From Synechococcus sp. A15-28 (GTDB lineage Bacteria > Cyanobacteriota > Cyanobacteriia > PCC-6307 > Cyanobiaceae), in assembly GCF_014280175.1 (NCBI RefSeq), contig NZ_CP047931.1, positions 420,001 through 452,000 on the forward strand: a stretch of DNA of 32,000 bases. Direction: 5' to 3'. This document shows positions 1 to 13,563 of this stretch, in pieces. Made by a program: the position numbers and the translations under genes. The first letter of the stretch is position 1. Each line of letters begins with the position of its first letter. The notes beneath the pieces were generated by a model, which worked only from the letters and a program-made list of their open reading frames with translations, did no database searches and had not been told where the DNA came from.

Positions 1-1544
1 TGGACCAGTCCGCCGGAGACCTGTCCATCGGCCTTGGGCAGGCCGGGCCGGAGAGCTTCCGGCGCATGTTGCAGGAGGCGCTGCGGGATCAGACGGACTG
101 TCTGGTGGTGGTGAAGGTGCACCCGGATGTGATCCGGGGCCGCGCCCGGGGCCATTTCCGCCGTCAGGATCTGCAGCACCCGCGCATCCGCCTCTGCGCT
201 GACGGATTGCACCCTGCCGCCCTGTTAGAGCAGGCCCAGGCGGTGTATGTGGTGACCTCCCAGATGGGGTTTGAGGCGCTGTTGTGGGGACGGACCGTCC
301 ACTGCTTCGGCATGCCTTTTTATGCCGGGTGGGGACTCACCGTGGATCGTTTGCCGGCTCCGGCCCGTCGGGGAGCGTCGGTGCCGTTGGCGGCGGTGGT
401 GCATGCGGCGCTGGTGGAGGGCACCCGCTGCGTGGACCCCCATCGGCATCAACCCTGTCAGATCGAGACGCTGATGGACGCCATCGGCCTGCAACGTCGG
501 CAGCAGGGGGCGGATCCCCTGCGGGTGCAGGCCTTTGGCTTCACTCCATGGAAGCAACGCAGCCTCAAGCGCTTTCTGGCCGGCAGTGAGCTGCGCTTTC
601 GCCTGCCGCGGGCGCTGCCGGGGCCGCGGGCGGAGGCCGTGGCGGTGTGGGGCCGGCGGGCTCGACCGCGTCTGCTGGCGACGGCGCGCCGTCGGGGGCT
701 GCCGCTGCTGCATGTGGAGGACGGTTTCCTGCGCTCGGTGGGCCTGGGGGCCGATCTGATCGACCCCATCTCCTGGGTGGTGGACCGCCGCGGCATGTAT
801 TACGACGCCACGGAGGCCAGCGATCTGGAGCAGCGGCTGGCCACAGGAATCTGGAGTGAGCCGCAGTTGCAGCGGGCCGAGGCCTTGCGCCAGCAGCTGG
901 TGGCGCAGGCCATCACCAAATACAACCTCCCAGGGGGCGGATGGCAGCGCCCCGACGCTGCCAGGCGGGTGGTGCTGGTGGTGGGGCAGGTGGAAAGCGA
1001 CGCTTCCATCCGCTATGGCGCTCCGGGGCACTCCAGCAACCTGGCACTGCTGCAGGCGGTGCGTGCGGCGGAACCGGAAGCGTTCCTGGTGTACAAACCC
1101 CATCCCGACGTGGTGGCGGGTCTCTGCCGCTCCGGTGATGGGGAGCAGCGGGCGGCCCAGGTATGCGACTGCTTGCTGCGCGATGGCTCGATCCATGCCC
1201 TGTTTGAGCAGGTGGATGCCCTGCATGTGCTCACCTCCCTGGCAGGGTTTGAGGCGCTGTTGCGGGGAGTGGAGGTGCATTGCTGGGGACTGCCCTTTTA
1301 TGCGGGTTGGGGGCTGACCCAGGATCGGTTGTCCTCGCCCCGGCGGGGCCGGTCGCTGCCTTTGGCGGCGTTGGTGCATGCCGCCTTGATTGATTACCCC
1401 CGCTACGTCAGCCGCCGCAGCGGTTGGTTCATCACTCCAGAGCAAGCCATTGAGGAGCTAGTGGCATGGCGGGATGCACCTCCAGCCCGCCGCACCCTGG
1501 TGCAGGCCCTGTTCCGACACTGGGGGCGTCTGTTCAATCGTTAG
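1..1544 (+). CDS. kpsC: KpsC-like capsule polysaccharide biosynthesis protein (beta-Kdo transferase family), 5'-partial. It shows the end of one Capsule_synth domain plus a complete second one.
   Basis: The frame is open from the window edge (codons in phase from nt 3), so the ATG at 66 is internal. Two copies of the family signature are present: 'VKVHPDV...TSQMGFEALLWGRTVHCFGMPFYAGWGLTVDR' and 'YKPHPDV...TSLAGFEALLRGVEVHCWGLPFYAGWGLTQDR'. A 'VLVVGQVESDASIRYG' motif is also present. These match my memory of KpsC/KpsS (Pfam Capsule_synth). Confidence 0.8.
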   Translation, partial: DQSAGDLSIGLGQAGPESFRRMLQEALRDQTDCLVVVKVHPDVIRGRARGHFRRQDLQHPRIRLCADGLHPAALLEQAQAVYVVTSQMGFEALLWGRTVHCFGMPFYAGWGLTVDRLPAPARRGASVPLAAVVHAALVEGTRCVDPHRHQPCQIETLMDAIGLQRRQQGADPLRVQAFGFTPWKQRSLKRFLAGSELRFRLPRALPGPRAEAVAVWGRRARPRLLATARRRGLPLLHVEDGFLRSVGLGADLIDPISWVVDRRGMYYDATEASDLEQRLATGIWSEPQLQRAEALRQQLVAQAITKYNLPGGGWQRPDAARRVVLVVGQVESDASIRYGAPGHSSNLALLQAVRAAEPEAFLVYKPHPDVVAGLCRSGDGEQRAAQVCDCLLRDGSIHALFEQVDALHVLTSLAGFEALLRGVEVHCWGLPFYAGWGLTQDRLSSPRRGRSLPLAALVHAALIDYPRYVSRRSGWFITPEQAIEELVAWRDAPPARRTLVQALFRHWGRLFNR

Positions 1545-2924
1545 ATGTTGTACTTAGTGCGACTATTTATAACGAATTTTTATAGGGTCTATTAGTTAGT
1601 TGATCGTCGACAAGGTTTTCTTCTTCTGCTTGTGGTGCTCTTTTGTTGTGAATTGTTGGCGTCGGGGTGTCTCGCGTCATTCAGATTTGCGGAAATGTCT
1701 GTCAATGTTGCTGCTTTAGGCGTGGCGAATGGCTAGAGGGGATATGCATCGAGATTGTTTAGTTGGTGCCAGAGAAATTTCTTTCAAGGAATCTGCGGAA
1801 TAATTTCCACTCTTCTTCTGTGAAAAAGGTGTGGCATTTGATGGCAAGATCAAGGCCACGTTCATTTAGTCTGGGGTTTGGGTTTTTGTTGCTGATTTTG
1901 AGTCTTGGGTCAGTGGATAGATTTTTGGCTTGTTCTGGTAACATTGCATTAAGTAAGTTCCTAAAATACTGTTGTGGCTGTTGGTTATTGCTTACAAGCT
2001 CGTATTCGAGTTGAATGATTTCTATCGATCTATGCGAAATAGTTTTCTCGGACAACCTATCGTTGATTTTGCTCAAGGATGACATTAGTGTGATCTTTTC
2101 TGCAAAGGAAAAGTCTCTCGTTTCGAGGAAGCTGTTCAGGCTTGCCGATGAGGGAAGATGATTGCCTTCCTTGACGTATTGATTGTGGCATGATCGAATA
2201 AATTCATCCTCGTTGCGTGTGATAAATATTATTTGCCACTGGATTGAAGCACTTTTGAGGGAGTTTTCCAGTACTTGCATGAGCCGCCTGGTTCTAGTTT
2301 CTGCGTACCGATAGAGTCCCTTTGTGTCCTCTCCATTTTCCTTGGAAGGAAGACTGATGTCAGGGTTGTGGAAAAGCCCGAAATGAAGTGTTCCAAAAAT
2401 AGCTTCGCATGATATTAAAATGGTATCTATCATTTCTTCATTGCCTTCGCATAGCTTATTGAGAATTTTCCGTGTGTTTTTTTGTAATTCTCGCGGTACC
2501 CTGTCACTTCCAGTATCTATGTGTTGCCATAGCTCGACCAAGTCGAATTTAAGGGTTCTTGGACCTATGTAAAGGACTCTATTTTCTTGTAAAATATTGC
2601 GGTTTTTTCTGCAGTTCAGTTGAAAGTAACTGGTGCCGGTTTTGTGTAAACCGCAATGGAGTACAATTCGACTGGGCTTGAGTTTGCTCAAGGGAATGAT
2701 TGACTTTCAGGGTGTGATTTTGGCTCGGTGAGAGCTGAGGCTTTTATTGGTAGTGAGTTTGATGAAGGGGCGTTCCGGGAGAGTTTGGATTGCCGCGTAT
2801 TGGCAGTGAAATAAAAGTCAATATTGTAGTTAATAGATTCAAAATATATATTTTGTGTTTTGAATGTGTCAAGATTGAAATAGTTTCAAGTAACGGCTTG
2901 GCCACGAGACGGGCACCGGCGCTG
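1545..2924. other. AT-rich islet inside the capsule locus, with visibly lower GC than both flanks. It carries one reverse-strand gene.
   Basis: Composition changes abruptly right after the kpsC stop (1544). It returns to high GC at about 2890-2925, where the KpsS-homologous frame begins. A/T runs and A/T-ending codons dominate in between. Confidence 0.75.
1759..2691 (-). CDS. Sulfotransferase-like protein (PAPS-dependent fold), probably acquired horizontally
   Basis: A 310-aa ORF in the low-GC islet. The N-terminal 'IVLHCGLHKTGTSYFQ' resembles the 5'-phosphosulfate-binding loop (PKxGTT type). 'IFITRNEDEFIRSCHNQY' resembles the 3'-phosphate-binding motif (RxP/xxRxxSxY type). The assignment is by motif only. 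Confidence 0.5.
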   Translation of the reverse strand: MSKLKPSRIVLHCGLHKTGTSYFQLNCRKNRNILQENRVLYIGPRTLKFDLVELWQHIDTGSDRVPRELQKNTRKILNKLCEGNEEMIDTILISCEAIFGTLHFGLFHNPDISLPSKENGEDTKGLYRYAETRTRRLMQVLENSLKSASIQWQIIFITRNEDEFIRSCHNQYVKEGNHLPSSASLNSFLETRDFSFAEKITLMSSLSKINDRLSEKTISHRSIEIIQLEYELVSNNQQPQQYFRNLLNAMLPEQAKNLSTDPRLKISNKNPNPRLNERGLDLAIKCHTFFTEEEWKLFRRFLERNFSGTN

Positions 2925-4910
2925 GTGCAGGTGCGCATCGAAGGACCGGTTCTGCTGCTGATGGGCCCGATCGGGCTGTTCTTTGCCCGTTTTAGCCGCT
3001 ACCTGCGGGGCTGCGGCATCCCGGTCACCAAGGTGCGTTTCCCGCTGCGGGAATTTGGCTTTCCGGCTGATGTTTGTGTGCCGTTCCGGGAGCCGATGGA
3101 GGCCTGGCGGCCCTTTCTGCGCCAGCTGCTGCAGGAGCGGGGCATCCGCCACATCTTTATGTATGGGGACTTCATCATTCCCCACCGGATTGCGATTGAA
3201 GAGGCCCAGGCCCTTGGGATTGAGGCCTGGGTGTTCGAGCTGGGTTACCTGCGGCCCAATTACGTGACCCTGGAGCGGGACCGGGTCAATGCTCGTTCCA
3301 ACCTCAACCAACCCGCGGTCTTCTATCGCCAGCTGCCGCCGGTGGATCAGTTGCCGCGAGACATCGTGCTGGACTCGGGTTGGCGTTGGCGCAAGGCCTG
3401 GAAGGCCCCCACCTTTATCCAGCACGCCTTCACCCGTTACCCGATCATCGAGGGGGAGCACAAACTGCAACCCACCCCTGGTTTTCTCTGGTGCCAGCTG
3501 CGCGGCAGCTGGCGCTACTGGCTGTACCGCTGGCAGGAGCGGAATCTGAAGCGGCGGCTGCTGGAGCACCTCTCGTTTTTCTTGGCGGTGCTGCAGGTCT
3601 CCAGTGATTCGCAGATCCAGCTGGGCTCGCCCTACCGCGGTATGCACGACTTCATTGAGGACGTGATCCGGTCTTTTGCGGCCCATGCCCACAGCTCCGA
3701 TCATCTGGCCTTCAAACACCATCCGCGGGACCGGGGCTACAACCACTACGGAAGCCTGATCGCTGTGCTGGCAGGGCGTTACGGCGTCAGTGGCCGGGTG
3801 CACTACTTCCACGACGGCCCCCTCAGCCGCTACCTGCGCACCTGCCGCGGGGTGATCACGGTGAACAGCACGGTGGGCCTTCAAGCCCTGTTCCATGCAG
3901 TGCCCACCAAAACCATGGGCAACACCTTCTACAACCTGGACGGACTGACGGACCAGAAGCCTCTGGATGATTTCTGGCGGGACCCCCAGCCCAGTGATCG
4001 GCCGCTGTTCTGGCGCTTCTATCACCACCTGGTGATGACCACTCAGGTGAATGGCAATTTCGACGGGGACTTCCCCTTCCGCATCACCTTCCCGATTGGC
4101 CAAGGGGCTCGCCAGCTGGATCCGCAGCCGCAGCTGCCGCCGCTTCGGCCACGGCCACGGATGAACTCCCTGCTGGTGCCGGCCCGGGTGCTAGCCCGCC
4201 TGGGTTGGGCCGCCGTGGGGTTTGTCTTGTACGGCCTGCAGTTGCCTGCGGTGCTGTTGCGGCGTGCGGACTTGGCGGCGCAACTGATGACCTGGGCCTC
4301 AGCTGTGGCCTTGCGGGCGCTTGGGGTGCAGGTGGTGGTGGATGACAGTCAGCCCAGCGAGCCGGCCGGGATGCCCCTGGTGCACATCTTCAACCACCGC
4401 AGCCCCTGTGATGGCCTGGTGATTCAAGGGGTGCTGCGCCTGCCGGGCATGACCACGGCTCAGTTGCATCTGAAATGGGTGTTGCCCGGATACGCGGCCG
4501 CAGCCCGCAACGCCGGGTCGGCCGTGTTGGATCACCGTCAGCCCAGTTCGCGCCTGGAAGGGATGATGCGGGCCTCCGCGTTGTTGCGCGACCACGGTCA
4601 GATCATGCTGGCCCCCAACGGCTCATTGGTGACGCCGATCGAAGAGCGGGTGTCCCCCAGCGCCTGGATGCTGGCTCAGCACTACGACGGTTGTGTGGTG
4701 CCCTGGCTGTTTCGCTATGACGGACTGGATGAGGCTGTGGGTGCCCGATACCGCCCCCTGGCGCTGCTGTTGAGCCGGTTGACGGCGCCGTTGGGAACGA
4801 TTCACTGCCGCCGGGGCCGGTCCCAGGATCTGGTTCTGCCAAAGGATCCCCGTGATCGGGAGGGGTTCAGCCGTGCTGTGCGGGCGTATTACCAGCAAGC
4901 ACAAGACTGA
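2925..4910 (+). CDS. kpsS: KpsS-like Kdo transferase fused in frame to a C-terminal PlsC/LPLAT-type acyltransferase domain
   Basis: The N-terminal ~390 aa carry KpsS-type motifs: 'VLLLMGPIGLFFARF', 'LQVSSDSQIQLGSPY', 'LAFKHHPRDRG' and 'VITVNSTVGLQALFH'. A Pro-rich linker (QPQLPPLRPRPR) and a hydrophobic segment (LLVPARVLARLGWAAVGFVLYGLQLPAVLL) follow. Acyltransferase motifs then appear: 'FNHRSPCDG' (HX4D block, nt 4392-4412), 'ARNAGSAVLDHR', 'LAPNGSL' and 'VVPWLF'. The track start at 2790 lies in AT-rich non-homologous sequence. I prefer GTG 2925 or 2931, but the start is uncertain. Confidence 0.7.
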   Translation: MQVRIEGPVLLLMGPIGLFFARFSRYLRGCGIPVTKVRFPLREFGFPADVCVPFREPMEAWRPFLRQLLQERGIRHIFMYGDFIIPHRIAIEEAQALGIEAWVFELGYLRPNYVTLERDRVNARSNLNQPAVFYRQLPPVDQLPRDIVLDSGWRWRKAWKAPTFIQHAFTRYPIIEGEHKLQPTPGFLWCQLRGSWRYWLYRWQERNLKRRLLEHLSFFLAVLQVSSDSQIQLGSPYRGMHDFIEDVIRSFAAHAHSSDHLAFKHHPRDRGYNHYGSLIAVLAGRYGVSGRVHYFHDGPLSRYLRTCRGVITVNSTVGLQALFHAVPTKTMGNTFYNLDGLTDQKPLDDFWRDPQPSDRPLFWRFYHHLVMTTQVNGNFDGDFPFRITFPIGQGARQLDPQPQLPPLRPRPRMNSLLVPARVLARLGWAAVGFVLYGLQLPAVLLRRADLAAQLMTWASAVALRALGVQVVVDDSQPSEPAGMPLVHIFNHRSPCDGLVIQGVLRLPGMTTAQLHLKWVLPGYAAAARNAGSAVLDHRQPSSRLEGMMRASALLRDHGQIMLAPNGSLVTPIEERVSPSAWMLAQHYDGCVVPWLFRYDGLDEAVGARYRPLALLLSRLTAPLGTIHCRRGRSQDLVLPKDPRDREGFSRAVRAYYQQAQD

Positions 4911-6132
4911 TGTTGTGACCGCCGAATCCGAAGGCATTCTTGAGCAGCAGACGTTGGCCTTGATCTGAAGAAAGCTGCACAGGGCCCTGTTTGGTGACGG
5001 CCAGCTCCACCTCAGGATCCAGGGGGTCGGCATTTAGGCTGCCGGGCAATACGCCATGGCGCAGGGCCTGCAGGGCCAGGATGGTTTCCACCGCACCGGC
5101 GCCCCCCAGTAGGTGGCCCAGCTGGCCCTTGGGGGCGTAAACCGGCAGATGATCGGCAGCACTGCCAAGGCTGCGCCGCAATGCTCTGGCCTCCGCCAGG
5201 TCACCGAGGCTGGTGCCGGTGGCATGGGCCTGAACACCGCAGAGGTCTGAGGGGTTCACCTTCGCCCGACGCAAGGCCTCGTCGATGGCACGGCTGGCCT
5301 GCAGCCCCTGGGGCTCGGGGGCGACGATGTGGTGGGCATCGCTGCTGCTGCCACTGGCCAGCAACCAGCCCAGGTCGGCCCCTGGAGGCGTGTCCTGTTG
5401 CCGCATCAAGGCCAGGACGCCGGCGCCTTCGGAGAGCACGAAGCCATCTCGACCGAGGCCGTAGGGCCGGGAGGCTTGATCAGGAGCGTCGTTGCGGCTG
5501 GACAGGGCGCGCATGGCTGCAAAGCCCACCAGCCCAAGTCGGTTCACCGGAGCTTCGCTGCCCCCGGCCAGCACCAGATCGGCGCGGTCGTCGTTGAGCA
5601 GCATCTGGCCCAGCATCAATGCTTCGGCGCCGGAGGCGCAGGCGGACACCGGGGTGTGGGCACCGCCGAGCAGACCGAGCTCAATGGCCACCTGGCCAGC
5701 GGCGGCATCGGGGATCAGCATCGGCACGGTGAGGGGGTTCACCCGGCTTGGTCCCCCCGTGCTGAGTTGCGTGTGTTGCTCGTGCATGGTGGCGAGGCCG
5801 CCGATGCCCGTGCCGATCACCACGGCGATGCGGCTTGGATCCAGGCCGGTGGTGATGGAGCTGGCCATGGTCCAGGCCTCCCGTGCGGCCACCAGGGCGA
5901 GCTGGGCGCAGCGATCGGAGCGGCGGCGGAGCAGGGGCGGCAGGCTGTTGAGGGCCCCCGTTGGGACGCAACCGGCCAGACGCACGGGCAGATCCTCGGT
6001 CCAGGGCGTCTGAAGGGTTTGAATGCCACTGCGGCCGGCGATCACCGCGTCCCAGGTGCTGTTGGCATCGGCCCCCAGCGGGTTGAGGGAACCCCACCCC
6101 ACCACTGCTGTTGGTTCAGCTTTGAGAGCCAT
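4867..6132 (-). CDS. Beta-ketoacyl-ACP synthase II-type condensing enzyme (FabF/FabB-like paralogue)
   Basis: Signatures include 'VVGWGSLNPLG', the active-site Cys context 'PVSACASGAEAL', the His contexts 'QAHATGTSLGD' and 'KGQLGHLLGGAG', and the C-terminal 'NAFGFGGHNISLVL'. I chose ATG 6132 (MALKAEP...), which overlaps the ACP stop by 17 nt. The track start at 6180 is less likely. Confidence 0.8.
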   Translation of the reverse strand: MALKAEPTAVVGWGSLNPLGADANSTWDAVIAGRSGIQTLQTPWTEDLPVRLAGCVPTGALNSLPPLLRRRSDRCAQLALVAAREAWTMASSITTGLDPSRIAVVIGTGIGGLATMHEQHTQLSTGGPSRVNPLTVPMLIPDAAAGQVAIELGLLGGAHTPVSACASGAEALMLGQMLLNDDRADLVLAGGSEAPVNRLGLVGFAAMRALSSRNDAPDQASRPYGLGRDGFVLSEGAGVLALMRQQDTPPGADLGWLLASGSSSDAHHIVAPEPQGLQASRAIDEALRRAKVNPSDLCGVQAHATGTSLGDLAEARALRRSLGSAADHLPVYAPKGQLGHLLGGAGAVETILALQALRHGVLPGSLNADPLDPEVELAVTKQGPVQLSSDQGQRLLLKNAFGFGGHNISLVLAGNTPAQHG

Positions 6133-6397
6133 CGCTCTGGCGGAGACTGGGGGATTCCAGGTGCTGCTGGATGTCCGCAACCGTGCGGAACCGGAGTAGT
6201 TCCTCTTCCTTGATCCGGATGCCGAAGTTGGTGTCTGCCTCGATCAGGATTTCGTAGAACCCAAGGGAGTCAATCCCCACGTCCTCCATCAGCCGGGCAT
6301 CAGGGGTGATCACGGCTGGATCGGCGCCGGAGATGCGGTGCAGCATCTCGATCAGCCGTCCCTGCAGCTCTTGCTTGTCAGGGCAGCTCTCACCCAA
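6116..6397 (-). CDS. Acyl carrier protein (dedicated, non-housekeeping)
   Basis: 93 aa with the phosphopantetheine attachment context 'EDVGIDSLGFYEIL'. It lies between the N-acyltransferase and the KAS genes. The only in-frame start upstream of helix I is TTG at 6397. Confidence 0.7.
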   Translation of the reverse strand: MGESCPDKQELQGRLIEMLHRISGADPAVITPDARLMEDVGIDSLGFYEILIEADTNFGIRIKEEELLRFRTVADIQQHLESPSLRQSDGSQS

Positions 6398-6442
6398 CGC
6401 ATGACCTCTCGGTGAGTAGTAAAGGTACCAGTGATGGTGGGA

Positions 6443-7354
6443 TTACTCGTCACCTCGGTACCAGCTGAAGCGTTGGTAGACGGGCTGGTGGGGCAGGTCG
6501 ATGAACAGGGCGAGCCGTTCTGGCGGCAACCGCCGCAGGTCGGCGGCCATCAGGATTTCAGTGATCTGGTTGAAGTCCAGGGCAAGGGACAGATCACAGA
6601 CTTCCGAGTGCATCAAGTTGAAGTACTGACGCAGCAGCACCGGTAATCGGAAATCGTCGGAGAGGGTCTGGCGGATCTCCTGCTCGAGGGCCTGGATGTG
6701 GCCGCTGGGATGGGGGGTGTCATCGGCGTGAATGCCTGGGAAGGGATGGCGTGGGGCCGGTAAGGGGGTGTTAAGGCGCCGGTAGGGCGGACGCAGCAGG
6801 GCGCTGAGGAAGGCGGCGTTCACCGCATCGCTGTAGGCGAAGTGGTTGTAGGAGACCAACCCGTGCAGCAGCTGGTAGCCGCTGCGGGCAGCGATCAACA
6901 GACCGCCGCGGAACAGGGCCATCAACGAATGGGGCTGCCGTTGGAAGCGTTCCGCCAGGGCGACCCTGCCGATCTCGAGATGGTTGGTGCGACTGGCCAG
7001 GTCCGCCTTGATGCCGGGGTAGACGTGTTCGAGGTAGGAGCCATCGCTGCCAGGCAAGGAGCTGGCACCGGCGGGGATGAATTGCAACCGGGCCGATCCG
7101 GCGAGGTCTCCACTGCTGCGTTCCACCAACAGAAGATGGTCGTAATGGGGATCGCGTCCGTCGAGGTCGCGCTCGTCACCGGACCCGCTCAGTTGCTTGC
7201 GATAAGTCGATTCTCGCAACCGTCCCACCGCGTCTGCCACCGGATCAAAGGCGGCCCCTGCGATCAGATGCAGGTCCAGGTCATCGATCGCCAGAAGTCG
7301 CGTGTCCGACGCCTCGGCCACAGCAGAGGGAATGGACGGACCAGACAGCGTCAT
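6443..7354 (-). CDS. GNAT-superfamily N-acyltransferase of the OlsB / N-acyl amino acid synthase ('putative hemolysin', Acetyltransf_5) type
   Basis: 'VGRLRESTYRKQL...DLDGRDPHYDHLLLVERSSGDLAGSARLQF' and 'LEIGRVALAERFQRQPHSLMALFRGGLLIAARSGYQLLHGLVS' match the OlsB-like pattern as I remember it (RLRyxVF...D.D.fD...HLlv.d...G..RL, then E.gR...). The ~300 aa length is typical for the family. Confidence 0.6.
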   Translation of the reverse strand: MTLSGPSIPSAVAEASDTRLLAIDDLDLHLIAGAAFDPVADAVGRLRESTYRKQLSGSGDERDLDGRDPHYDHLLLVERSSGDLAGSARLQFIPAGASSLPGSDGSYLEHVYPGIKADLASRTNHLEIGRVALAERFQRQPHSLMALFRGGLLIAARSGYQLLHGLVSYNHFAYSDAVNAAFLSALLRPPYRRLNTPLPAPRHPFPGIHADDTPHPSGHIQALEQEIRQTLSDDFRLPVLLRQYFNLMHSEVCDLSLALDFNQITEILMAADLRRLPPERLALFIDLPHQPVYQRFSWYRGDE

Positions 7355-7430
7355 TCGTGTTCCAATCTGTCTCAGCCAGCCGGCAGATTAGACCGACTCG
7401 TTCGAGCTTTCGTCGCTTCTCACTGCCTTG

Positions 7431-8519
7431 ATGCCTTTCCCTTCACGCCCTGCTGCTCTGGTCTGCACCCGGCTGATCGCGGGTCTGGCTGCCGCAGCAA
7501 CCCTGGCGGTTGTCCCGATCGCGGCATCGGCGGACTTACTGACTCGGGCCAGCGGGACCTCCAGCCTGAATCGGGAGGCCTTTCGCTATCGACTGGGTCC
7601 CGGGGACAGCCTGGCGATGTCGGTGTTCAAGATGGATGGCTACGAGGCCAAGGTGGAGGTGCTCAGTGACGGCACCATCAACCTGCCTCGCATCGGCACG
7701 ATCGAGGTTTGGGGGCTCACGCTCGAGGAGGCACGCCAGCGCATTACCGCGGCCTATGAGGTGTTCCTACGCCGGCCGATTGTTTATCTCGACTTGGTTA
7801 GTTCACGGCCGGTGAAGGTGACGGTCACCGGAGAGGTGGAGCGCCCCGGCGTGTTCAGCCTGCCGACCCAGGCAGAGGGGGGCTGGCCGACGCTGGTGGA
7901 TGTGGTGCAGAAGGCCGGCGGCGTCAGCGCCAGCGGTGATCTCTCCAGAATTGAGGTCTTGCGTCCCTCGGCCCGCCCCGAAGGCTCGATGCGTCGCTAT
8001 CAGTTTGATTACCTCACCGTGTTGCGTGAGGGGGGGCATGCCCCCAATCCGCTGATCTACGACGGCGACAGCATTCGCTTGTACCAGAGCGAAAGCGCTG
8101 ACAATGCTGATCTGATCACCACAGCGGCCTCCAACTTCGCCCCCGACACGATTCGTGTGAATGTGATCGGTGAGGTGGCCAAACCGGGCATTCAGCAGGT
8201 GCCCTCCAATGCCCCGCTGTCCCAGGCGATCTTTGCGTCGGGTGGAATCACCCGCCGCGGCAGCATCAGCACCGTGGAACTCGTCCGGGTGGATGGCGAC
8301 GGGGAACCGACGGTGAGGGTGATGAGCTTTGACCCCAGCGCTGTGTTGAGCAGCTCCACCAATCCCCCATTACGTCAGAACGATGTGATTGTTGTGAACC
8401 GCTCCGCTCTGGCCAAGGTGACCGATGGGTTGACCGACGCCTTCTCACCGTTGACGCCGATTGTGAACGCCGCCTCGATCTTCCGGATCCTCGGTTTGCC
8501 CACGGGATTGGGCAACTGA
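7431..8519 (+). CDS. Outer-membrane polysaccharide export protein (Wza/KpsD, OPX family)
   Basis: It has an N-terminal signal-like segment (AALVCTRLIAGLAAAATLAVVPIAASA). The Poly_export signature 'YRLGPGDSLAMSVF...VLSDGTINLPRIGTIEVWGLTLEEARQRI' is present, with SLBB-like repeats ('VKVTVTGEVERPGVF', 'IRVNVIGEVAKPGIQ'). ATG 7431 is preferred over TTG 7428. Confidence 0.8.
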   Translation: MPFPSRPAALVCTRLIAGLAAAATLAVVPIAASADLLTRASGTSSLNREAFRYRLGPGDSLAMSVFKMDGYEAKVEVLSDGTINLPRIGTIEVWGLTLEEARQRITAAYEVFLRRPIVYLDLVSSRPVKVTVTGEVERPGVFSLPTQAEGGWPTLVDVVQKAGGVSASGDLSRIEVLRPSARPEGSMRRYQFDYLTVLREGGHAPNPLIYDGDSIRLYQSESADNADLITTAASNFAPDTIRVNVIGEVAKPGIQQVPSNAPLSQAIFASGGITRRGSISTVELVRVDGDGEPTVRVMSFDPSAVLSSSTNPPLRQNDVIVVNRSALAKVTDGLTDAFSPLTPIVNAASIFRILGLPTGLGN

Positions 8520-10709: not shown

Positions 10710-11135
<426 letters not shown>

Positions 11136-11170
11136 TTAAGGTCTGTCTTGAGCGAGGACCTGTTCAACCT

Positions 11171-11560
11171 TTGACCCAGACGCCACAGTACGGCGAACGT
11201 GCGATCGCCGAAGCCGAGCTGATCTGCTTCGATAATCCCAGGCCTGGCCGGCCCTACGAGGTGTCGATCGAGCTGCCGGAGTTCACCTGCAAGTGCCCCT
11301 TCTCGGGCTACCCCGATTTCGCGGTGCTGCGCTTGATCTATCAGCCTGGTCCCCGGGTGGTGGAGCTCAAGGCCATCAAGCTCTACATCAACAGCTTCCG
11401 CGATCAGTCGATCTCCCATGAGGAGGTGACCAACCGGATCCTGGATGACCTGGTGGCGGCCACCGATCCGGTGTGGATGCAGCTGGAGGCTGATTTCAAC
11501 CCCCGCGGCAATGTCCACACGGTGGTGCGGGTCAGTCATGGGGCGCGTCAGGCCTGTTGA
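11171..11560 (+). CDS. queF: NADPH-dependent 7-cyano-7-deazaguanine (preQ0) reductase
   Basis: '[26 protein letters not shown]' and 'SHEEVTNRI' are QueF type-I signatures. The start is TTG as given by the track, and is uncertain. Confidence 0.9.
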
Positions 11561-11615
11561 GGGCCAGGGCTCTGTCAACCTCGATGTCCTCTCCCGATTG
11601 AAAAAATCAAGTTCT

Positions 11616-13563
<1,948 letters not shown>

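Follow-up and report, generated by a model that had tools for sequence, protein, structure and literature searches.

The 32,000-nucleotide stretch of the Synechococcus sp. A15-28 genome analysed here (the window; NZ_CP047931.1, positions 420,001 to 452,000 of the forward strand, with coordinates given as window positions unless another locus is named) carries three adjacent minus-strand genes for a GNAT-fold N-acyltransferase (the GNAT), an acyl carrier protein (ACP) and a beta-ketoacyl-ACP synthase (KAS). This trio lies inside a group-2-like kps capsule locus, together with genes for a KpsC-like glycosyltransferase, a fusion of KpsS with a PlsC-type acyltransferase domain (KpsS-PlsC) and a Wza-type exporter. 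Our preferred reading, held tentatively and at somewhat less than even confidence, is that the GNAT and the PlsC domain would make an ornithine-lipid-like N-acyl, O-acyl lipid, which would be the acceptor and anchor on which KpsS and KpsC start the capsule, with the ACP and the KAS tailoring its acyl chain. The original prediction, made from the letters of this DNA, had described a cyanobacterial ornithine-lipid-type pathway; on the comparative genomics presented below, the reading would shift from such a pathway to a lipid-building module of the capsule locus.

The gene neighbourhood was surveyed by tblastn with the window proteins in 83 related loci (80 from a genome scan and 3 from an exact look-up), all picocyanobacterial, the closest of which come from Synechococcus single-cell genomes; the counts use loci with enough flanking sequence. 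The PlsC and KpsS domains were found in all 68 loci that reach 4.5 kb or more downstream of the GNAT, and they form a single uninterrupted frame in 67 of these. KpsC was present in 61 of 61 loci, and Wza lay upstream of the GNAT in 71 of 72. The ACP and the KAS, in contrast, were found in 47 of 75 loci, namely in 43 of 43 where the GNAT is at least 49% identical to ours and in 4 of 32 where it is 33-43% identical (28 of these 32 are without ACP or KAS). On these counts, the constant unit consists of the GNAT, KpsS-PlsC, KpsC and Wza, and the ACP-KAS pair is an accessory. The original prediction had treated the GNAT, its private ACP and the KAS as one trio, which is correct for the upper identity tier, where the GNAT-ACP-KAS order is retained in 43 of 43 loci, but does not extend to the lower one.

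Two types of locus were distinguished by the genes surrounding this unit. Type A, to which the window belongs, has a PseF-like cytidylyltransferase gene and three DUF6716 glycosyltransferase genes after kpsC, while type B has a GT1-like gene before the GNAT and genes for KpsM, KpsT, a protein of 410 amino acids (aa) and a GT2 after kpsC. Since the GNAT is kept in both types, it belongs to the constant and not to the polymer-specific part of the locus. KpsS, KpsC and the outer-membrane polysaccharide export (OPX) protein are encoded in the window; KpsM and KpsT adjoin the unit in type B and, among the distant loci described next, in L091 and L096, and the fetched flanks of the type A loci end before any KpsM/KpsT gene.

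Distant stand-alone members of the GNAT clade, 24-31% identical and located on contigs of 27-52% GC, were looked up one by one, and all contigs long enough to inform tie the clade to kps genes (those of P0215 and P0258 are too short). Locus L095 reads KpsT, KpsM, Wza, GNAT, ACP, KAS and KpsC, and L091 and L092 carry KpsMT, Wza, GNAT-ACP-KAS, KpsS, a cytochrome P450 (P450) and KpsC. In L084, L093 and L094, a HepA/MsbA-like ABC exporter gene is followed by the GNAT, an overlapping KpsS gene (51% identical to the KpsS domain of the window) and a KpsC-like gene; L085 has the GNAT and then KpsS, and L086 has KpsD, Capsule_synth, CTP_transf_3, NeuB and the GNAT. A PlsC-domain homologue (35% identity) lies directly upstream of the GNAT in L088. 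Locus L096 has KdsB-KdsC (above cut-off), KdsA-type, KpsF-type, GT1-like, GNAT, a separate PlsC of 235 aa, KpsS, KpsC, rml genes, Wza, KpsM and KpsT. The PlsC domain is fused to KpsS in Synechococcus, while L096 encodes it on its own, in a gene that stands between those for the GNAT and KpsS, and this occurrence as a fusion in one lineage and as neighbours in another argues that PlsC and KpsS act in one pathway.

Some of these loci show further peculiarities. The exporter gene preceding GNAT-KpsS in a 42% GC organism (L093 8029-9873; L084 274-2130) codes for a fused HepA/MsbA-type ABC exporter and not for KpsMT, and a gene for a MAPEG-family membrane protein comes after; this suggests a lipid-linked product that is flipped there by a different transporter. 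Between kpsS and kpsC of L091 and L092 (11688-14107; a metagenome-assembled genome (MAG) labelled Synechococcus sp. WH 8007, 49% GC), the P450 gene stands with a weakly lipase/thioesterase-like gene, and the two possibly encode further lipid-tailoring enzymes. On the short P0215 contig, the GNAT is followed by an Asp/Arg-hydroxylase-family gene (L089 1291-1980), a family that we take to be that of the lipid hydroxylases OlsC and LpxO. A protein of about 330 aa with a faint Glycos_transf_1 match adjoins the GNAT in type B and distant loci (L057 8888-9880; L091, L093, L095 and L096); these proteins are 27-57% identical to one another, are absent from type A loci with ACP-KAS, and may be a further constant partner of the acyltransferase. 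The picocyanobacterial wza-GNAT-kpsS-plsC-kpsC block was also found in MAGs titled Bradyrhizobium ivorense, Mesorhizobium carmichaelinearum, Pseudanabaena sp. and Sphingobacterium thalpophilum (L029, L049, L078 and L082), two of which (L029 and L082) carry purB as well, at 81-84% identity. Contigs under such titles share the purB-wza synteny of the other loci, and these bins are probably mislabelled or contaminated.

Domains and predicted folds of the encoded proteins

The original prediction had staked its N-acyltransferase assignment on a match to an Acetyltransf_5 or OlsB-type hidden Markov model, and Pfam PF13444 (Acetyltransf_5) matched residues 46-144 of the GNAT at 43.7 bits (cut-off 22.4). 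In NCBIfam, the OlsF model NF052615 aligned in its C-terminal half only (positions 318-568) at 60.6 bits, with a cut-off of 620; the window protein had no match at E<0.01 to the OlsB or GlsB models, for which a distant clade member scored 26-29 bits (cut-offs 300-350), and no match to the exosortase-associated acyltransferase model. An exhaustive HMMER search returned 16 representatives at E<1e-30, followed by hundreds of OlsF-type proteins of about 600 aa at around 1e-17. In a neighbour-joining tree, a rough one without support values, the stand-alone proteins of about 300 aa form a clade apart from the OlsF-type clade. Judging from these sequences, the nearest relatives outside the GNAT clade are the OlsF-type aminolipid synthases of about 600 aa. 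The description "OlsB-like" is thus adequate at the level of the superfamily, but the protein is neither OlsB nor OlsF according to NCBIfam and belongs to a separate clade.

A sequence search of the chains in the Protein Data Bank (PDB) with the GNAT gave only chance-level matches (best E 0.029, PaaC). Its AlphaFold2 (AF2) model has a mean predicted local distance difference test (pLDDT) value of 93.2 and a predicted template modelling (pTM) score of 0.91, and the top PDB matches found with Foldseek were CurA GNAT-L, MesI, BjaI, EsaI and FeeM. The predicted fold is that of acyl-ACP/CoA-dependent N-acyl transferases, which include the CoA-dependent acyl-homoserine lactone (AHL) synthases and the N-acyl amino acid synthase FeeM. 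A quorum-sensing (LuxI-type) function, considered on account of these fold matches, was discarded, since the sequence points to OlsF-type enzymes and there is no regulator at the locus. Residues E127, R130 and G165 are invariant; E127 is found in 39 of 39 diverse sequences and E127/R130 in 92 of 92 loci, and we infer that E127 is the catalytic glutamate.

In the KpsS-PlsC fusion, Pfam Capsule_synth matched residues 122-424 at 189 bits, and the NCBIfam KpsS model NF050054 aligned over positions 14-387 of its 390 at 277 bits, below its cut-off of 600. The C-terminal domain matched the PF01553 acyltransferase family at 30 bits (cut-off 23) and has the HX4D motif as NHRSPCD, with the His kept in 78 of 78 and the Asp in 77 of 78 sequences. 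The homologues are 645-700 aa long with both domains in each, and translation of the window gene probably begins some 30 codons after the listed TTG. While a sequence search of PDB chains with the PlsC domain gave no match, its AF2 model (pLDDT 89.9) opens with two long helices and has as its best PDB match the PlsC of Thermotoga maritima (5KYM; TM score 0.58-0.63), including the two N-terminal membrane-binding helices of that enzyme; PatA was clearly weaker as a match, and LpxM was not among the matches listed. The original prediction had placed a PlsC-type O-acyltransferase domain beside the trio, which would bring the OlsB and OlsA chemistries side by side. Such a domain is indeed there, but as the C-terminal half of a KpsS fusion inside a kps-type capsule locus. 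Two marine loci (L014 12486-13178; L019 12430-13134) have, between the KAS and kpsS-plsC genes, an additional PlsC-domain paralogue that stands alone and shares 43-45% identity with the fused domain. The KpsC-like protein, whose frame is open from base 3, matched Capsule_synth at 212 bits in three stretches, and its orthologues in relatives are 661-713 aa long. Both the KpsS and the KpsC domains score well under the NCBIfam equivalog cut-offs.

The ACP matched PF00550 (PP-binding) at 41.1 bits and the AcpP equivalog TIGR00517 at 40.4 bits (cut-off 70.45), and all 16 ACP models remained below cut-off. It is therefore a specialised protein and not the housekeeping AcpP. The serine of the DSL motif, required by the original prediction for a functional carrier, is present in the GIDSLG sequence, and the D, S and L of the motif are kept in 54 of 54 loci. 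The KAS matched the N- and C-terminal ketoacyl-synt domains of Pfam at 150.9 and 105 bits and is of the Cys-His-His type, as had been proposed, with the triad motifs SACASG (Cys), HATGT (His) and GHLLG (His); the Cys, His, His and Lys residues are kept in 50-52 of 52 loci. It scored 381.4 bits with the FabF model TIGR03150 (cut-off 493.75) and 374.8 bits with NF005589 (cut-off 387). A recent duplication of the housekeeping fabF was considered as its origin and rejected, the protein being at about equal distance from the FabF of Thermus (291 bits), KasA of M. tuberculosis (276 bits) and the FabF of Synechocystis (1E5M, 255 bits). The KAS or KpsC gene is broken into two open reading frames (ORFs) in some contigs from long-read metagenomes (L001 11224-12488; L002 12445-16477), which could be assembly frameshifts or real pseudogenes.

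Gene layout in the window

The features of the capsule locus are compiled in Table 1. The strand, identities and tight packing of the trio agree with the original prediction in coordinates, domains and spacing. Read from the sequence, the GNAT stop codon (TAA, 6445-6443) is separated by 45 nt from the TTG start of the ACP at 6397, and the stop codon of the ACP (TGA, 6118-6116) lies within a 17-nt overlap with the KAS gene, which starts at the ATG of 6132-6130. The KAS frame extends to a TTG at 6180 in the ORF listing; we take the ATG as its start because the gene calls of relatives repeat the 17-nt overlap (in L003, ACP 10932-11240 and KAS 11224-12489). The divergent arrangement of the trio and the Wza-like exporter was likewise confirmed, 73 nt separating the start of the Poly_export and SLBB protein from that of the GNAT.

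Table 1. Features of the capsule locus at the start of the window.
Feature	Position	Strand	Assignment based on
KpsC-like dual-module Capsule_synth glycosyltransferase, C-terminal ~510 aa; N-terminus before the window start	3..1544	+	Pfam
310-aa ORF without assigned function, on a low-GC insertion between kpsC and kpsS-plsC	1759..2691	-	ORF list
KpsS-PlsC fusion, 706-aa ORF: KpsS-like (beta-Kdo transferase family) N-terminus, two amphipathic/hydrophobic helices, PlsC-type C-terminus	2790..4910	+	Pfam, NCBIfam
FabF/KasA-like elongating KAS, 421 aa from ATG, Cys-His-His-Lys active site	4867..6132	-	Pfam ketoacyl-synt
Divergent dedicated ACP, 93 aa, TTG start, GIDSLG phosphopantetheine site	6116..6397	-	PP-binding
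Stand-alone GNAT-fold N-acyltransferase, 303 aa; Acetyltransf_5 (OlsB / OlsF-C / GlsB / NAS) superfamily, capsule-linked clade	6443..7354	-	Pfam, NCBIfam, AF2, gene context
Wza/KpsD-type OPX protein	7428..8519	+	Poly_export 68 bits, SLBB domains

All three genes of the trio are under purifying selection, with dN/dS values of 0.06-0.15 for each against five relatives (0.055-0.135 for the ACP). The KAS and kpsS-plsC genes converge and share 44 nt at their 3' ends (4867-4910), which leaves no space for terminators and implies that the two transcripts overlap in antisense. The same 44-nt overlap is repeated in relatives (L001 12445-12488), and in type B loci without ACP-KAS it is the 3' end of the GNAT that overlaps the plsC end, also by 44 nt (L057 10812-10855). 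A weak promoter/terminator scan found within the trio no promoter-like site and no terminator-like site on the coding (minus) strand, its lone terminator-like match there lying on the plus strand (6187-6203). An Rfam search in and around the trio gave nothing useful.

Downstream, the capsule locus stops at Wza, which is directly followed by purB and then by other housekeeping genes, with phycobilisome genes at 17.4 kb of the window. On the other side, an insertion of about 1.4 kb (approximately 1545-2920) has a GC content of about 40-43% (43% for 2001-3000), compared with 63% for the window, and looks like a recent horizontal insertion. Its 310-aa ORF had no match in Pfam, NCBIfam or the PDB, its DNA had none in phage genomes, and tblastn gave no match of at least 45 bits (E<=1e-5) in the 83 related loci; it is strain-specific and probably not part of the core system. 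Its HKTGTS motif had raised the possibility of a sulfotransferase, which was dropped because no tool supports it.

Proposed pathway and its alternatives

In the pathway that we propose, the GNAT would move a long acyl chain, probably a 3-hydroxy or 3-oxo one, from acyl-ACP onto the amino group of a small head-group molecule, following the chemistry of OlsB, the C-terminal domain of OlsF and GlsB. At the membrane surface, the PlsC domain fused to KpsS would add a further acyl chain through an ester bond (OlsA/PlsC chemistry). The KpsS domain would then glycosylate the lipid with the first ulosonic-acid residue, which is Kdo in the E. coli model, and KpsC would extend the linker. Serotype-specific transferases would make the polymer, KpsMT and Wza would export it, and the lipid would remain as its membrane anchor. 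Where present, the private ACP and the FabF-like KAS would elongate or channel a particular acyl chain for the first step. The head group would have to offer a hydroxyl for glycosylation, as serine, threonine or homoserine do. From the observed domains, intact catalytic motifs, purifying selection, invariant neighbourhood, fused or adjacent KpsS and PlsC and kps linkage in distant loci, we infer each of these chemical steps, the type of chain and the replacement of phosphatidylglycerol (PG) as the acceptor.

Several points weigh against this proposal, which is built wholly from gene context and homology. The KpsS enzymes studied use PG (PMC12220298), and since cyanobacteria make PG, a new acceptor is not required. 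A product of the ornithine-lipid type would be left with no obvious free hydroxyl for glycosylation once its 3-OH is esterified, and the locus encodes no reductase that would turn the KAS product into a 3-hydroxyacyl chain. The transferred sugar is itself uncertain, because the KpsS and KpsC domains fall far below their NCBIfam equivalog cut-offs, and the type A loci carry a PseF-like and not a KdsB-like cytidylyltransferase. Finally, some of the distant contigs may be cyanobacterial, which limits the independence of those observations.

That studied systems all use PG (PMC12220298) also speaks for a rather unlikely alternative in which PG remains the lipid that carries the capsule, just as it is in E. 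coli. The PlsC domain would then do no more than re-acylate or remodel the (lyso)PG terminus, and the GNAT, with ACP-KAS, would N-acylate a position near the reducing end, such as an amino sugar or aminoacyl substituent, for extra anchoring. The closeness of the PlsC-domain model to a true lysophosphatidate acyltransferase (5KYM) is in its favour, and the constant association with KpsS and KpsC would suit any modification of the terminus. However, the GNAT's known relatives have free amino acids, and not sugars or phospholipids, as their acyl acceptors, PG has no amine, and neither an aminoacyl-PG synthase nor an amino-sugar gene is among the constant members of the locus. A quite improbable alternative is that the GNAT, ACP and KAS decorate the polymer, with a short 3-hydroxyacyl group (for instance 3-hydroxybutyryl) made on the private ACP and then attached, by an N-linkage, to a sugar of the repeat unit, either an amino or a nonulosonic one. 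Nonulosonic acids are often N-acylated, and ACPs occur in some O-antigen decoration pathways; the PseF-like cytidylyltransferase of the type A loci and the NeuB gene adjoining the GNAT in L086 would fit such a role. The GNAT is nevertheless kept amid wholly different sets of glycosyltransferases, including loci without nonulosonic-acid genes, and in 28 loci without ACP and KAS. Moreover, the KAS is of the elongating FabF/KasA type and not a short-chain initiator, and the constant partner of the GNAT is a membrane-type PlsC domain fused to the initiating transferase.

We regard as very unlikely the model of the original prediction, in which OlsB and OlsA activities yield an aminolipid of the ornithine-lipid type that is free in the membrane and has no functional tie to the capsule, the genes being merely co-located or co-regulated with it. 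In its favour, the locus has both the Acetyltransf_5 and the PlsC chemistry, aminolipids contain no phosphorus, and the cluster is enriched where waters are poor in nitrogen and phosphorus (PMC10119275). Yet the O-acyltransferase is fused to KpsS in 67 of 68 loci, every informative contig shows the GNAT together with kps genes, no ornithine lipid is on record for cyanobacteria (PMC12971839), and the cluster sits on a variable genomic island of only some strains (PMC10119275, PMC7522525), unlike a bulk membrane lipid pathway. Given the fusion of PlsC to KpsS and the kps-type character of the whole block, a capsule lipid acceptor or anchor is more probable than a free membrane aminolipid, and the ornithine-lipid-type pathway gives way to a capsule lipid module. 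We give least credence to the GNAT making a small N-acyl amino acid signal, like the N-acyl amino acid synthases (NAS) of PEP-CTERM/exosortase exopolysaccharide (EPS) loci or FeeM with its own ACP. The Foldseek matches to FeeM and the AHL synthases point in this direction, and a private ACP beside the synthase parallels FeeM and FeeL; a link of NAS to EPS loci was reportedly described by Craig et al. in 2011. Such a signal would leave the constant PlsC partner and its fusion to KpsS unexplained, the exosortase-associated acyltransferase of NCBIfam did not match, and the locus has no regulator or receptor gene.

The gene block itself has been listed before. Doré et al. (2020, 2023) described a kps cluster of 12 genes in clades III and WPC1 of Synechococcus (PMC7522525) and an enrichment of capsule gene clusters in nitrogen- and phosphorus-poor, iron-replete waters (PMC10119275). 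Dataset 6 of the latter gives the order kpsD, "acyl-CoA N-acyltransferase" CK_00002156, ACP-domain protein CK_00002157, fabF2 CK_00009077, kpsS, kpsC and neuA on the island Syn_GI125. The passages of these two papers on the kps cluster discuss neither the PlsC fusion nor a role as lipid anchor. Aminolipid reviews cover the OlsB/OlsA, OlsF and GlsB pathways, the one of 2024 without mention of cyanobacteria (PMC11631085), and a 2026 review reports OlsB homologues in Nostocales and no ornithine lipid in the phylum (PMC12971839). A phylum-wide EPS survey found an odd distribution of KpsS and KpsC in cyanobacteria. The novelty that the original prediction saw for cyanobacteria was therefore overstated, as the block is listed as a Synechococcus kps cluster and OlsB homologues are known in Nostocales, but it is true that no aminolipid has been shown in any cyanobacterium.

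A broader claim, which we consider possible though more doubtful than the preferred reading for the window, is that picocyanobacteria, and some other aquatic bacteria, build their ABC-transporter-type capsules on a dedicated, possibly phosphorus-free, acyloxyacyl aminolipid made by a capsule-specific OlsF-like GNAT and a KpsS-fused PlsC. If true, a third type of lipid terminus for capsules would join (lyso)PG-poly-Kdo and the diacyl-N-acetylhexosamine (diacyl-HexNAc) of Vi; it would also represent the first role of OlsB-family enzymes as glycoconjugate primers and the first cyanobacterial aminolipid. Marine Synechococcus belongs, with its relatives, to the most abundant phototrophs. Their kps cluster forms a niche-linked island that is enriched where nitrogen and phosphorus are scarce in the water (PMC10119275). 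The tethering of the capsule decides whether the polysaccharide is kept on the cell or shed as dissolved or gel carbon. An attached capsule may be expected, in general, to shield the cell from phages and grazers. The KpsMT exporter of model bacteria, moreover, uses the lipid terminus as its recognition signal; a different terminus, if made by the OlsF-like enzyme and KpsS-PlsC, would widen the chemistry of capsule anchoring, and a capsule role would give OlsB-family acyltransferases a new biological function. Some strains carrying kps genes, such as WH8102, are genetically tractable, which makes the system directly testable.

Relation to known aminolipid and capsule systems

The window system resembles the OlsB/OlsA, OlsF and GlsB/GlsA pathways in its Acetyltransf_5 superfamily enzyme, whose best NCBIfam match is the C-terminal domain of OlsF, and in the pairing of an N-acyltransferase with an O-acyltransferase. 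It differs from OlsB and OlsF in that the GNAT is ten-fold under the OlsF cut-off, has no OlsB match, belongs to a separate stand-alone clade and is always found in capsule loci. The O-acyl partner also differs, being a PF01553 PlsC domain fused to KpsS instead of OlsA or the PF19576 domain of OlsF.

With the group 2 capsules of E. coli and Neisseria, the locus shares its KpsS-like protein, a dual-module KpsC-like protein, the OPX exporter and, in relatives, KpsM and KpsT, and the overall logic of the locus is alike. In those bacteria, KpsS puts a beta-Kdo on (lyso)phosphatidylglycerol and KpsC extends the poly-beta-Kdo linker (PMC12220298). Unlike its E. coli counterpart, KpsS here bears a PlsC domain and has an N-acyltransferase as its constant companion, often along with an ACP and a KAS. 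To our knowledge, the group 2 loci of E. coli encode no lipid-synthesis genes and a housekeeping phospholipid is used.

The Vi antigen is the recognised exception, its diacyl-HexNAc terminus being made from beta-hydroxyacyl-ACP by VexE, an enzyme of the lysophospholipid acyltransferase (LPLAT) type (PMC12220298, PMC9597891). The Vi loci of Salmonella Typhi and Achromobacter are comparable to ours as ABC-transporter-type capsule loci with their own acyl-ACP-dependent acyltransferase of the LPLAT superfamily, and their non-phospholipid terminus retains Vi on the surface (PMC9597891). They lack KpsS and KpsC, however, and VexE is a TPR-LPLAT protein near PatA and LpxM that acylates UDP-N-acetylglucosamine, whereas the domain described here is nearest to PlsC and is partnered by a GNAT N-acyltransferase.

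The rkp-1 region of Sinorhizobium meliloti and S. fredii (the RkpA protein, which resembles fatty-acid and polyketide synthases (FAS and PKS), and RkpG-J) is similar in being a Kdo-type K-antigen system with fatty-acid-synthase-like lipid genes. Their presumed task is to produce and modify "a specific lipid carrier" on behalf of the K antigen (PMC4881576). Their enzymology is different from that of the GNAT, ACP, KAS II and PlsC, and the rkp lipid is chemically undefined too. The rkp-1 enzymes are of the type I PKS/FAS kind, with an oxoamine-synthase-like RkpG.

FeeM/FeeL and the NAS of PEP-CTERM/exosortase loci are also GNAT-fold, acyl-ACP-dependent N-acyl amino acid synthases, with a linkage to EPS loci, and the fee cluster has a dedicated ACP. 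They differ from the window system, where there is no sequence match in NCBIfam, no exosortase or PEP-CTERM genes are present, and the partners are PlsC, KpsS and KpsC. In the rhizobial acpXL-fabF1XL/fabF2XL-lpxXL cluster, a private ACP and FabF-type KAS enzymes feed a special acyl chain, the very-long-chain fatty acid of lipid A, to an LPLAT acyltransferase acting on a surface glycolipid. That cluster, in contrast to ours, also encodes dehydratase and dehydrogenase enzymes, has lipid A as its target and is without an N-acyltransferase. VexE, for the Vi antigen, and rkp-1, for the rhizobial K antigen, serve as precedents for a capsule locus that supplies its lipid terminus itself.

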